The position numbers were made by a program, and so were the translations under genes. From positions 69,949 to 133,948 of the forward strand of contig CAYMJR010000001.1 in assembly GCA_964391315.1 (NCBI GenBank): 64,000 nucleotides of DNA. The letters run 5' to 3'. Below the pieces are notes generated by a model. That model did not search any database and was not told the DNA's origin. It saw nothing but the letters and a program-made list of their open reading frames with translations. The first letter of the stretch is position 1. Every line of letters starts with the position of its first letter. Source of the stretch: an uncultured Gammaproteobacteria bacterium. Lineage in GTDB: Bacteria > Patescibacteriota > Microgenomatia > Levybacterales > UBA12049. Shown piece by piece: positions 54,574 through 57,919 of this stretch.

Positions 54574-54869
54574 AAGGCGAGAATAGTTTTGTCTGTCCCT
54601 AAGTAATAGCGGGACCAACCAGGTACCATTCACTCAACCTGTTGCCTTACATTCCCCTCATTAACCCAGTCGTGAGACTGTCCTAATAAGTTTCCTGTCT
54701 TCCCCAATCCTAAATTTCTCAAAAAAGGAAATTTAAGAAAGGAGGTGATCCATCCCCAGCTTCGGCTAGGGATACCTTGTTACGACTTAAGCTTCATCGC
54801 TGAATTTGGACTCGAACCCCTTGCGGGATGCTTCATCCACTCCCAACTTTGCTGCCTTGACGGGCGGTG

Positions 54870-55665
54870 ATCGCAGTAAGAACTATTCTGCTCCCCACTG
54901 GACGTGCGGATTTCCCGCATCCAGCGAGTCTCTTATAAAATCCTCTTTGAGAAGTCTAATCTTCCCAATGCCATCGGAAGTAAGATGCTGTTTGTTTAAC
55001 ATTAATTCTGCTACTTTACAAAATAATGCAAAACTAAATTTTTTCTTTGCTTGTAAAGGATACTTCTGAAAAAAAGGTATAACTTTTGTTGTGATATCTT
55101 TTAAGTTTGAGACTTTATATTTACAATGGGGTCTCCACTTTTTATATCTCTCATAGTTGAGGTAATAAATATTACCACAACTAAGCGTTTCTTTTACTCT
55201 TTCCAGAATTTCCTTATCATCTTCTCGTAATTCAATTTCAAAGATGAGTCTTACTTCAAGCAAACGATTATTGTTATGGTTGTTAAAAGTAATACTAAAA
55301 CAACCTTCACCATCTACTAAACCGACTAAATAATAAGGATTTAATTTTGAGTTCATCCCTTCTCCTAATATTATTATACATAATACTAAGATACTATGGA
55401 ATTTGCTGACTTCCTCTAGCCTATTATTGTTCTGACGCATAGAGGATCTCCTTGGGTCACGCAAAAAACAATTTCAAACATCCTAAAAAGCTTTTTCAGG
55501 GCTCTTCCTCTTAGTACACATAAGAGTCGAGCTGCTTTGTAATTTTAGGCTACTCTTCGTTACATCGAACCCTTCAGACTTTCTCTTACGAGCTAAGTCC
55601 TGTTCTTCAACTACATGAGTGGATTTTCACCACTTTGTTTTTTACGCTGCCAAGCGCATTTAATT
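54870..55665 (-). mobile_element. 796-nt insertion in 16S between TGTACA and CACCGCCCGTC (about E. coli 1396/1397), carrying a LAGLIDADG gene
   Basis: Flanking exon sequences rejoin to the universal TGTACACACCGCCCGTC. The insert starts AAUUAAAUGCG and ends CUUACUGCGAU. Confidence 0.8.
54883..55356 (-). CDS. LAGLIDADG homing endonuclease (single-motif, about 157 aa)
   Basis: ATG at 55356 is preceded by AGGAGAAGGG. MNSKLNPYYLVGLVDGEGCFSI carries the LAGLIDADG motif. Lies entirely inside the insertion. Confidence 0.85.
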   Translation of the reverse strand: MNSKLNPYYLVGLVDGEGCFSITFNNHNNNRLLEVRLIFEIELREDDKEILERVKETLSCGNIYYLNYERYKKWRPHCKYKVSNLKDITTKVIPFFQKYPLQAKKKFSFALFCKVAELMLNKQHLTSDGIGKIRLLKEDFIRDSLDAGNPHVQWGAE

Positions 55666-55981
55666 TGTACAAGACCCGAGAACGTATTCACCGCGGCCTT
55701 CTGATCCGCGATTACTACTGATTCCGACTTCATGGAGTCGGGTTGCAGACTCCAATCTGAACTGAGGCGAAATTTCTGAGATTAGCTTGCCGTCACCGGC
55801 TTGCAGCTCATTGTTCTTCGCCATTGTAGGGTGTGTGTTACCCAAGGTATAAGGGACGTGCTGACTTGACGTCTTCCGCTCCTTCCTTCCCAGTAAAACT
55901 GGGACCGTTTCTAATGAATATGTAACATTAGACACGGGTTGCGCTCGTTTCCCCACTTAAGGGAACACCTCCGAATCGTTT

Positions 55982-56796
55982 GATAATACAAACGAACTTA
56001 GACTATACCTTTATCCTCTCATTGAGTAGGATACTGACGTGTTATGGAACATTATATGAATAATTTTCCATCTCTGCTGTTATGCAGAAGTCGTTACGGG
56101 GTCAAAAATTTTATACTGAAATGTTGAAAGAATATATGGTCTTATTAACGAAAAGAAAGTTTCAATACTTTTTTTCTTAATTAATAATTTTGAATCATTT
56201 TTGAAAGAGCATTTTATATCAAACTCATCTTCAAGTCTCTTCTGAAGAAATAAAATATCTTCTCTTGAAAATCCATCAGTAGCAATAATACATTTATGGT
56301 CACTAAAACAACCATCATCCATGTACCAAATTGCTAAAACTAATGGTGTAAGTTGAATATCTTTGGGAATAATCTTTTTGTTGTCGAAATAGAATTTCTC
56401 TCTCCAAGATGAAAAATATTGACGAGTCCAAAACCGATAAGAAGTATATGTTTGAGAAAAACGTTTATCAAAACGTTCAACTTTCGATACATTCTTATAT
56501 GAAATTGAACCTAATTCTTGGTGTTTCCAAAAAAGATATTCTTTCTGATTACTACTCTGTTCAAATTGAATCTGACCTCTTTTTGTTATATATGCATCGC
56601 CAAGAAGTGAACCTATTAAGATTTCTTCTTGATGATTTGTTACAAAAAGTTTTTGATTCTTTCGAGCTCTCAGTTGCATAAAACTTCGACTTCCCTCGGT
56701 ATTACAACAGTATACCAAAATACACTTTTGCTTCACCGATATGAGTCAGTTATACATCCCGATATTACTATCGGGAGCCGCGAGACATTTTTGTTC
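55982..56796 (-). mobile_element. 815-nt insertion in 16S (about E. coli 1078/1079), group-I-intron-like boundaries, carrying a LAGLIDADG gene
   Basis: The 5' exon ends ...CGUGCCGU, with U at -1. The insert ends ...AACGAUUCG, with a terminal G. The spliced product has the same length as E. coli across CGUGUUGUGAAAUGUUGGG. GNRA hairpin CCCGAUA-GUAA-UAUCGGG near the 5' end. Confidence 0.75.
56080..56736 (-). CDS. LAGLIDADG homing endonuclease (double-motif)
   Basis: Motifs ILIGSLLGDAYI and LAIWYMDDGCF. The track start is a GTG at 56736; an alternative ATG lies at 56679. Lies entirely inside the insertion. Confidence 0.85.
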   Translation of the reverse strand: MKQKCILVYCCNTEGSRSFMQLRARKNQKLFVTNHQEEILIGSLLGDAYITKRGQIQFEQSSNQKEYLFWKHQELGSISYKNVSKVERFDKRFSQTYTSYRFWTRQYFSSWREKFYFDNKKIIPKDIQLTPLVLAIWYMDDGCFSDHKCIIATDGFSREDILFLQKRLEDEFDIKCSFKNDSKLLIKKKSIETFFSLIRPYILSTFQYKIFDPVTTSA

Positions 56797-57919
56797 ACGG
56801 CACGAGCTGACGACAGCCATGCATCACCTGTGTTACCATCCTTGCGGATTGCCCCTTATTTCTAAAGGGCTGTACGGTAGCATGTCAAACCTTGGTAAGG
56901 TGTTTCGCTTCGTCTCGAATTAAACCACACGCTCCACCAGTTGTGCGGGTCCCCGTCAATTCCTTTGAGTTTTAGCCTTGCGGCCGTACTCCCCAGGCGG
57001 TCCGCTTAATGCGTTAGCTTGGACCCCTGCAAGCAAGCTTGCAAGAGCCAGCGGACATCGTTTACGGCTAGGACTACACAGGTATCTAATCTGTTTCGCT
57101 ACCCTAGCTTTCGTGCCTCAGCGTCAGGAAAAGTACAGAAGCTTGCCTTCGCCCTTGGTGTTCCAGTTAATATCAACGCATTTCACTGCTACACTAACTG
57201 TTCCAGCTTCCCAACCAATCCTCAATTCCATGAGTATCCTCGCCACTCCCAAGGGTAAGCCTTGGTCTTTAAGCAAAGACTTTATGGAACGCCTACGCAC
57301 ACTTTACGCCCAATGAATCCGGATAATGCTTGCTCCCTACGTATTACCGAGACTTCTGGCACGTAGTTAGTAGGAGCTTATTCTCCAAGCTGTGAACGGC
57401 TTGGTAAAAGGAGTTTACAACCCGAAGGCCTTCATCCTCCACGCGGCGTCGCTGCGTCAGACTTTCGTCCATTGCGCAATATTCCCAGTTGCTGCCATCC
57501 GTAGATGTACTGCCCGTGTCTCAGTGCAGTTGTGGCTGATCGACCTCTCAGTCCAGCTACCCGTCATTGCCTTGGTGGGCCTTTACCCCGCCAACTAGCT
57601 GATAGGACGCAGGCTCCCCCCTTGGCGGTCCGTTAAGACCTTTACTCTTACGAGAACTATGGAGAATTACCCCCTCTTTCGAGGGGCTATGCTCCACCTA
57701 GGGATAGATTCCTACGCGTTACTCACCCGTCTGCCGCTGACTTGTATTGCTACTCATCCGCTCGACTTGCATGCTTAAGGCACGCCGCCAGCATTCATCC
57801 TGAACCAGGATCAAATTCTCAAAAAAATTTGAGAGGTACCATCGCTGTGATGATACTTCTGATTTCGGATTTTTTTTATTCTGATTGCTCAGAGTTAAAT
57901 AGGTAAACCCGAAAAAATT

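Follow-up and report, generated by a model that had tools for sequence, protein, structure and literature searches.

The 64,000-nucleotide stretch of DNA analysed here (the window) covers positions 69,949 to 133,948 of contig CAYMJR010000001.1 (assembly GCA_964391315.1), which is deposited as an uncultured Gammaproteobacteria bacterium and placed by GTDB in the Levybacterales. It contains a complete 16S rRNA gene whose three exons are separated by two insertions, each bearing one intact open reading frame (ORF) for a LAGLIDADG protein. Insertion 2 lies between exons 1 and 2, and insertion 1 lies between exons 2 and 3. On comparative evidence, insertion 2 is a predicted group I intron and insertion 1 a predicted compact group II intron of the rns-1396 family. 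All features and their coordinates are collected in Table 1.

The Rfam model SSU_rRNA_bacteria aligned to the gene in two parts, model positions 9–873 to 57818..56996 (745 bits) and model positions 875–1387 to 56994..55666 (351 bits), and left an 826-nt block unaligned after model position 1069. The 3′ tail of the 16S, GGAUCACCUCCUUU, terminates at 54738 by direct reading of the sequence. At gathering thresholds, Rfam detected only the first 823 nt of the 16S and one tRNA in the whole window. The joined exons (1030 + 306 + 132 nt) give a spliced 16S of 1468 nt. We placed the junctions by global alignment of the joined exons against Escherichia coli rrsA (L164), which put them at U1078/G1079 and A1396/C1397 in E. 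coli numbering. The G+C content of the insertions is 31–35%, versus 52% for the 16S exons. These results bear out the extent of the gene and the presence of two LAGLIDADG insertions in the original prediction, as well as both approximate junctions, with Rfam, the rrsA alignment and Pfam in agreement. The extent given there for insertion 1, with A at −1 and a terminal U, was exact. For insertion 2, the start at 56796 stands, and the end had to be moved from 55982 (815 nt) to the terminal G at 55972. The conserved blocks, estimated at about 1478 nt, come to the 1468 nt stated above.

Relatives of insertion 2 were gathered by way of its endonuclease, and 21 loci, including the window, are interrupted at this position of the 16S. 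The host labels include Levyi-, Davies-, Magasanik-, Staskawicz-, Sungii-, Kaiser-, Collier- and Yanofsky-bacteria. We aligned 20 of these loci with MAFFT after replacing the ORF by an artificial GAAA loop (alignment A3). P2 and P8 were omitted from the pair count because of MAFFT mis-registration. Across these 20 homologues, the 27 core pairs scored are 98.5% paired, against 35–42% when the partner column is slid. Compensatory changes occur in 14 pairs, and on four of the five measures none of 500 shuffles reached the observed value. The U1078·G wobble of P1 marks the splice site in all 20 homologues, and five of the six remaining P1 pairs show compensatory changes (for example, GGCGU/GCGCC, GUCUU/GAGAC and GAUGU/GCAUC). 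All five positions of P3 pair in every homologue, with compensatory changes in four. P4 is 100% paired with three compensatory pairs, and P5 is seen in the minimum free energy (MFE) fold. P6 is likewise 100% paired, and GUC/GAC is replaced by GUU/AAC in four homologues. P3, P4 and P6 together contribute nine compensatory pairs. P7 (A-[C]-GACU / AGUC-U) is invariant throughout, so its columns give no covariation evidence.

The remaining parts of the group I core were located by reading the sequence and by folding. The 5′ strand of P7 lies within GUAACGACU, with a bulged C before GACU, and the 3′ strand lies within AAGGUAUAGUCU. These two segments look like the R and S elements of the classic core, with the bulged-nucleotide guanosine-binding site. 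The two hairpins between P7 and P3′ resemble P7.1 and P7.2 of subgroup IA. P2 reads UCCCGAUA-GUAA-UAUCGGGA, and its loop is the GNRA loop that had been noticed near the 5′ end of the insertion. Every homologue has a hairpin in the P2 region, where the MAFFT alignment is imperfectly registered. When the window intron is folded without its ORF, the MFE structure contains P2 to P9 (z = −5.2). The boundaries of insertion 2 can be read in two ways, U↓G...G↓G or G↓A...G↓A, where the arrow marks the splice junction. The relative L007 reads U↓A...G↓A and the U·G pair is invariant, and for these reasons the boundary with U at −1 and a terminal G was chosen. All 20 homologues end in G. The group I rule that had been claimed for this insertion is thus upheld by L007, by the invariant U·G pair and by a full covarying core.

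The 199-residue ORF sits in the loop of P6. It carries two motifs, LIGSLLGDAY and LAIWYMDDG, and an acidic residue is retained in both. Its alignment with I-SceI from the Protein Data Bank covers the full length (approximately 1e-15), and those of its 212 homologues that are named come from lineages of the candidate phyla radiation (CPR). From its sequence, the product is predicted to be an I-SceI-like, monomeric homing endonuclease, and its double LAGLIDADG motif had been noticed before. Its last codons (FDPVTTSA) overlap P6′, the joining segment J6/7, the 5′ strand of P7 and the next hairpin. The C-terminus FDPVTT(S), whose codons form P6′, J6/7 and the 5′ strand of P7 (56080–56105, minus strand), is conserved among the homologues.

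Insertion 1 departs from the group I rule at both of its boundaries (A...AU) because, as far as its sequence tells, it is a group II intron. Relatives were gathered through its endonuclease and from the set of group I relatives, and 15 introns, here called class A, were aligned without the ORF (alignment A4). In these 15 relatives, the 74 pairs scored are 96.5% paired, versus 29–44% when slid. Forty-nine pairs are compensatory, and none of 500 shuffles reached the observed values. The organisation is that of six domains, with domains 1, 2, 5 and 6 identified by covariation and domain 4 occupied by the ORF, while domain 3 is placed from an Rfam match. In the ORF-less, 404-nt version of L002, domain 4 is a short hairpin. 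The non-coding RNA of the window intron comes to approximately 385 nt. Two Rfam models match it. Intron_gpII (RF00029, domains 5 and 6) aligns at 54929..54870 (35.1 bits, E = 1.4e-4), and this match stops precisely at the final base of the intron; group-II-D1D4-1 (RF01998) aligns at 55441..55356 with 29.9 bits.

The seven helices of domain 1 are 90–100% paired, and most of their pairs are compensatory. One of its hairpins presents exon-binding site 1 (EBS1, UGUAC), which pairs with intron-binding site 1 (IBS1, GUACA; exon positions 1392–1396, 55670..55666) at five of five positions in 15 of 15 relatives. The G preceding EBS1 can pair with C1397. In L093, the two sides covary (exon GCACA, loop UGUGU). 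Domain 2 is 100% paired with four compensatory pairs and is followed by the joining segment J2/3, GAAGUCAGC. The 13 pairs of domain 5 are 99.5% paired, and five are compensatory. Its CGC triad is a variant that we take to be typical of class IIC. The helix of domain 6 is 96.7% paired with three compensatory pairs. The 5′ linker is conserved as AA(A/U)UAAAUGCGC in all class-A relatives, and the 3′ AY consensus (Y, pyrimidine) is present as a terminal AU in every class-A member.

The 157-residue ORF in domain 4 starts with an ATG at 55356 directly downstream of AGGAGAAGGG, in agreement with the ribosome-binding site that had been suggested for it. It has a single motif, LVGLVDGEG, again as suggested, and the catalytic acidic residue is kept. 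Among solved structures, it resembles one half of the two-domain enzymes of the I-OnuI family (2e-44). Since it has one motif and matches one half of such enzymes, the product is expected to act as a homodimer. The named members among its 662 homologues are CPR lineages. The Pfam matches of both ORFs lie above the cut-offs of their families. Its conserved C-terminus, RDSLDAGNPHVQWGAE, is read through domain 5 into domain 6, and the peptide RDSLDAGNPHVQWG is encoded by domain 5 and the start of domain 6 (54883–54930, minus strand). The conserved C-terminal peptides of both endonucleases presumably reflect the constraint on the RNA and not protein function.

Table 1. The interrupted 16S rRNA gene, its two predicted introns and their structural elements (window coordinates).
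Feature	Position	Strand	Details
Complete 16S rRNA gene	54738..57826	minus	3089 nt, three exons; Rfam SSU_rRNA_bacteria 745 + 351 bits
Exon 1 of 16S	57826..56797	minus	1030 nt
Predicted group I intron at U1078/G1079 (insertion 2)	55972..56796	minus	825 nt; IA-like, P7.1/P7.2-like hairpins
P1	56777..56801	minus	exon GCCGU + intron GA (56801..56795) with internal guide UCGCGGC (56783..56777)
P2 hairpin, GUAA tetraloop	56757..56776	minus	sequence reading and MFE fold
P3 5′ strand CUGAC	56745..56749	minus	partner GUCAG 56038..56034
P4 enclosing P5	56696..56739	minus	UCGGU 56739..56735 with ACCGA 56700..56696
P6	56098..56695	minus	GGG-AA-GUC 56695..56688 with GAC-CCC 56103..56098; endonuclease ORF in loop
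ORF of 199 aa, LAGLIDADG_2	56080..56679	minus	Pfam PF03161, 1e-37; in P6 loop
P7	56001..56092	minus	GACU 56092..56089 with AGUC 56004..56001
Two P7.1/P7.2-like hairpins	56088..56045	minus	MFE fold; between the P7 strands
P8	56033..56012	minus	MFE fold; after P3′, between the P7 strands
P9 hairpin and terminal guanosine (omega G)	55972..55995	minus	hairpin 55995..55976, omega G 55972; sequence reading and MFE fold
Exon 2 of 16S	55971..55666	minus	306 nt
Predicted group II intron at A1396/C1397 (insertion 1)	54870..55665	minus	796 nt; IIC-like, rns-1396 family with LAGLIDADG homing endonuclease (LHE)
5′ terminal linker and 5′ motif	55654..55665	minus	AAUUAAA 55665..55659, then UGCGC 55658..55654; replaces canonical GUGYG start
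Domain 1	55451..55654	minus	base helix CUUGG/CCAAG, 13-bp helix GCGUAAAAAACAA/UUGUUUUUUGCGU, internal hairpins
EBS1 UGUAC	55514..55518	minus	loop of hairpin CUCUUA-UGUGUAC-UAAGAG
Domain 2	55412..55446	minus	UCCUCUA...UAGAGGA; 100% paired, four compensatory pairs
Domain 3 (inferred)	~55404..55350	minus	Rfam D1D4-1 match and comparison with ORF-less L002
ORF of 157 aa in domain 4, LAGLIDADG_1	54883..55356	minus	Pfam PF00961, 6e-24
Domain 5	54894..54928	minus	lower helix UCGCUGGAU/GUCCAGUGG, CGC triad, AC bulge, upper helix GCGG/CCGC
Domain 6	54870..54891	minus	GCAG...CUGC 54891..54873; terminal AU 54871..54870
Exon 3 of 16S	54869..54738	minus	132 nt

Drawing on the boundaries, the covarying ribozyme structures, the guide–exon pairings, the intact endonuclease ORFs and the patchy, independent distribution of the introns, we conclude that the 16S gene very probably carries two independent mobile introns of the self-splicing type, a group I intron after U1078 and a group II intron after A1396. 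The contrast between the two sets of boundaries is therefore one of group I versus group II and not of splicing versus fragmentation. Both insertions belong to classes of ribozyme that ligate their exons, and for this reason fragmentation of the rRNA lacks support. The original prediction had proposed that the two elements are removed by different mechanisms, self-splicing for one and excision or fragmentation for the other. A difference in splicing chemistry agrees with the present evidence, and the excision or fragmentation of insertion 1 gives way to the evidence for group II. In thinking of what might overturn its view, that prediction had named group I models only, with both insertions as canonical group I introns, and the group II possibility thus went unconsidered. 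Insertion 1 falls into that class instead.

The removal of the two introns can be proposed in outline. In the group I intron, the internal guide would pair with the exon end GCCGU, and the U·G wobble would mark the 5′ splice site. The core formed by P3 to P9 would bind guanosine at P7, and the guanosine would attack at U1078. Two transesterifications, with exon ligation at omega G, would then produce ...GCCGU↓GAGGUG.... In the group II intron, the pairing of EBS1 with exon GUACA would set the 5′ splice site, which would lie 7 nt upstream of the UGCGC motif because of the conserved linker. Domain 5 would act as the catalytic centre, and the first nucleophile would be either water (hydrolysis) or an adenosine of domain 6 (branching). 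The intron would end in AU, and ligation would restore GUACA↓CACCGCCCGU. Both endonucleases presumably cut intron-less 16S alleles, and the introns would thereby spread by homing at the DNA level. Splicing in this organism and activity of the endonucleases are inferred, and the group II intron may follow either of the two pathways.

Several points weigh against the assignment to these two ribozyme classes. The Rfam group I model RF00028 (gathering threshold 50 bits) reports nothing in the window even at E ≤ 10. The model probably fails because of the 600-nt ORF in P6 and the additional hairpins of the P7.1/P7.2 kind, and L014 and L015, which have introns at the same site, give weak matches of 27–31 bits that cover the 3′ core only. 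As the model is silent for insertion 2, its class was established by comparative analysis. Both group II matches in the window fall under their gathering thresholds (35.1 versus 40 bits for RF00029 and 29.9 versus 35 bits for RF01998). The ORF-less class-A relative L002 clears the threshold of RF01998 (38.2 versus 35 bits), and more distant introns at the 1396/1397 site score 37.6–56.4 bits against the Rfam group II models. The 5′ consensus GUGYG is not found at position 1 of insertion 1, a departure that has itself been described for the rns-1396 family. Domain 6 of the window gives no clean helix with a bulged A in the MFE fold of its own sequence, which leaves the candidate branch adenosine A54877, at −8, in a large loop. 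A bulged A at −8 or −9 is predicted in nine of 17 relatives. Domain 3 is placed tentatively, from the Rfam match and the comparison with L002. Finally, removal and ligation in vivo are argued from reports on the intron families.

Among the alternatives, the one that survives best is that one or both introns keep the ribozyme fold and have lost self-splicing, so that a protein cofactor, either the LAGLIDADG protein as a maturase or a host factor, would be needed. The group II intron is very compact, with its non-canonical 5′ end and its ambiguous domain 6, both ORFs overlap strands of the core, and LAGLIDADG maturase activity is known for some group I introns (PMC11270868). On the other hand, the core helices are intact and show clear purifying and compensatory selection, and homologues from Thiomargarita are cited elsewhere as experimentally characterised. 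We consider a need for such a cofactor unlikely, and it would refine the explanation by two self-splicing introns and not replace it.

Another possibility is a one-base shift of the group II intron boundaries, to C1395↓A...A↓U1396, with GUACUCACC as the mature sequence. This product matches the U1396 variant of 16S found in intron-less CPR genes, for example L003, L013 and L022. However, the closest intron-less 16S relatives (L001, L005 and L006) have A1396, and the published rns-1396 boundaries read ...UGUACA↓...↓CACCGC. With the shift, the intron would end in GA, not AY, in every class-A member, and both the conserved A1396–U pair of EBS1/IBS1 and the G–C1397 pair would be lost. We rejected the shifted boundary on the GA end and the loss of the A1396–U pair, and regard it as very improbable.

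Slightly less probable again is that insertion 1 is an intervening sequence without a ribozyme, cut out by a host nuclease of the RNase III type and leaving the 16S either fragmented or ligated in some other way. Boundaries unlike those of group I introns, the missing GUGYG and the sub-threshold group II scores would all fit such an element, and intervening sequences processed by RNase III are known in bacterial 23S rRNA and suspected for some short CPR insertions. Against this stand the covarying structure of the six-domain type, including domains 5 and 6, an EBS1–IBS1 pairing that tracks the insertion site, and the AU end. In addition, a break between A1396 and C1397 would sever the strand of the decoding centre. 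For both insertions, the energy of a duplex between the terminal 40 nt lies within the range of shuffled sequences (for insertion 1, −14.7 kcal/mol versus −12.9 ± 3.4). Ends that form no duplex beyond chance argue against an RNase III-type intervening sequence.

Retention of the insertions in mature rRNA as expansion segments, or a locus that is a pseudogene or an assembly chimera, can be dismissed as hardly credible, since both sites lie in functional centres (the region of helix 34/35 and the strand of the decoding centre), the exons, as their scores against the SSU model show, are intact, the same arrangement occurs in an independent assembly, and transcripts are reported to lack the CPR insertions (PMC11270868).

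The independent assembly, L161, carries the same tandem arrangement of two insertions, and the layout is thus not an assembly artefact. Among the closest 16S relatives, each intron is also found without the other. Only the 1396 intron is present in L082 and L083 (86% 16S identity to the window), and only the 1078 intron in L001 (86.5% identity), which indicates that the two introns have been gained or lost independently. In L002 (Candidatus Microgenomatus auricola), an ORF-less 1396 group II intron of 404 nt and a 1078 group I intron occur together (positions 53–4750). Three further Rfam group I matches in L002, one of 86.7 bits (4499–4750) and two of 40.3 and 39.2 bits elsewhere, suggest that its 16S may be interrupted at at least five places.

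We noted that related group II introns occupy four adjacent bonds in the decoding-centre strand of the 16S. They are found at 1396/1397 in the window, L002 and L081–L097, at 1397/1398 in L019 and L101, at 1398/1399 in L025, L099, L100 and L103, and at 1399/1400 in L009 and L014. The window intron is the common 1396 form. The introns at 1396–1399 share a 5′ linker of the AAAUAAA type, and the ORF, where present, is a homologous LAGLIDADG_1. The endonucleases at the four bonds are of the single-motif kind and 40–88% identical. EBS1 tracks the site, with GUGUAC at 1396, GAGUG or GAGUA at 1397, UGUGU or UGAG at 1398 and GUGAG at 1399. In the introns at 1398 and 1399, complementarity of the loop extends over both exons without interruption, as one guide of approximately 9 nt (for example, GGCGGUGAG). 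The loop of L100 covaries with an exon change, C1400U (GGCAG). A tentative idea, which we hold to be rather doubtful, is that a group II family without a reverse transcriptase, mobilised by its endonuclease, "walks" along the target by changing its RNA guide. Such a walk might proceed by reverse splicing, and a functional adaptation could account for the conserved linker. The distribution over four adjacent sites is not resolved in Tsurumaki et al. 2024 (PMC11270868) or in Liu et al. 2026 (PMC13190283).

A second group II-like subfamily is found at 1396/1397 in L015, L020, L021, L023, L098 and L102. Its domain 5 reads CCAGGGUACGGGAAAACCGUGUGCCCGG, its scores against group-II-D1D4-1 (48–56 bits) are well above the gathering threshold, and when the boundary is set so as to restore the 16S, the intron terminates in AA (or GA), not AY. 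Some of the related contigs (L005, L004, L015–L017 and L028) are labelled "Nanoarchaeia archaeon", "Gammaproteobacteria" or "Pseudomonadales" in the records of metagenome-assembled genomes, and these labels probably reflect mis-binning. The 16S of L005 is 78% identical to that of the window, much like that of L008 (Daviesbacteria), and the endonucleases of the two are also similar in their identity to that of the window (52% versus 49%).

The surroundings of the gene were also inspected. A terminator-like hairpin followed by a U run lies 3′ of the 16S on the same strand (54534..54515), and genes for tRNA-Cys (54462..54389) and then tRNA-Ile (53958..53885) follow downstream on that strand. There were no matches to 23S or 5S rRNA within the 64-kb window, which suggests that the 16S and 23S genes are unlinked. 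On the minus strand, 58152..58125 matches the sigma-70 consensus perfectly (TTGACA, 16 nt, TATAAT), approximately 300 nt upstream of where the 16S begins. Between this match and the 16S lies a terminator-like hairpin (58080..58062, minus strand), and the match is an uncertain candidate for the rRNA promoter.

The intron at 1396 lies inside the 1392R/1406 primer site and the gene measures 3.1 kb, and amplicon surveys and standard rRNA predictors will miss or truncate such a gene. With the corrected intron boundaries, the mature 16S of 1468 nt can be recovered for phylogeny. The gene adds one more case to the intron load already known for CPR rRNA genes. It also indicates that the group II-LHE family described from giant sulfur bacteria and the elements common in CPR are of one kind.

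Both kinds of intron have already been documented in CPR 16S genes, and no new mechanism is implied. Insertions in rRNA genes that carry homing endonuclease genes are a known hallmark of CPR (PMC11270868), as the original prediction had stated. Such insertions in 16S were first seen by Brown et al. 2015, whom PMC11270868 also cites for their removal from transcripts. Tsurumaki et al. 2024 surveyed 380 CPR 16S genes and found insertions in 48% of them (PMC11270868). Group I introns, most of them with LAGLIDADG_2/3, were spread over several conserved sites. Insertions of the group II-like kind were confined to the vicinity of position 1400, and 39 of 53 had LAGLIDADG_1. No reverse transcriptase was found in the insertions. 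Their class 16IS9 (about 1400, group II-like, LAGLIDADG_1) and group I introns with LAGLIDADG_2 make up the same combination as in the window. Several insertions per gene and a patchy distribution are also common to both, with insertion totals of 1–5 kb in the survey. The survey classed insertions by Rfam alone, and the window group I intron would join its LAGLIDADG_2 insertions with "no hit" (10, Table S3). The text of PMC11270868 does not confirm which of its numbered sites (16IS4–7) equals 1078, and the literature on 1078/S1078 did not confirm 1078 as an earlier named bacterial intron site.

The closest match for the group II intron is the rns-1396 family of Liu et al. 2026, which has a IIC backbone, a single-motif LHE in domain IV, IBS1 and IBS3, no EBS2 and a 5′ terminal linker in all members (PMC13190283). 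Giant sulfur bacteria are known to have 16S introns of both groups, I and II, that have been characterised by experiment, as cited in PMC11270868. The rns-1396 introns of Thiomargarita namibiensis and other Thiotrichaceae go back to Salman et al. 2012, as re-analysed by Liu et al. 2026 (PMC13190283). In Table S4 of that work, the Thiomargarita exon ends read ...UUGUACA↓CACCGC and the EBS1 region reads UGUGUGUACC. The window shares this site, the exon ends and the EBS1 loop GUGUAC. It also shares the linker before the 5′ motif, the single-motif LAGLIDADG ORF in domain IV, the single A that joins domain IV to domain V and the lack of an encoded reverse transcriptase. The hosts differ, as Thiomargarita is a gammaproteobacterium and the window host is a Microgenomates/Levybacteria-like CPR bacterium. 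The main text of Liu et al. calls rns-1396 exclusive to Thiotrichaceae, yet Table S4 has one entry from Saccharimonadota (PMC13190283). Homology of the two ribozymes at the level of sequence is suggested by these shared features.

More distant parallels come from mitochondria. The omega intron of the yeast mitochondrial large-subunit rRNA, which encodes I-SceI, combines a group I ribozyme in an rRNA gene with a monomeric two-motif LAGLIDADG enzyme, as does the window intron. Other group I introns with LAGLIDADG ORFs in peripheral loops belong to this comparison too. The omega intron differs in site and host and lies in the 21S rRNA, whereas the window ORF sits in the P6 loop of a 16S intron, with its 3′ end over P6′ and P7. 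In the IIB1, IIB2 and IIA1 introns in the mitochondrial rRNA of fungi and green algae, a LAGLIDADG endonuclease replaces the reverse transcriptase, as in the window (Toor and Zimmerly 2002 and Mullineux et al. 2010, as cited in PMC13190283). Some of them carry a 5′ terminal linker, as the window intron does, and some have a degenerate branch site. The endonuclease of the window intron finds its closest resemblance in the I-OnuI family of fungi. These mitochondrial introns have IIB or IIA backbones and mostly two-motif enzymes, whereas the window intron has a CGC triad, a small, IIC-like domain 1 and a one-motif enzyme. Like the window insertions, the intervening sequences of bacterial 23S rRNA that are processed by RNase III are extra stretches within an rRNA gene that the mature rRNA lacks. 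These intervening sequences are short, have a terminal stem cut by RNase III, leave a fragmented rRNA and are without a ribozyme core, whereas both window insertions have ribozyme cores.

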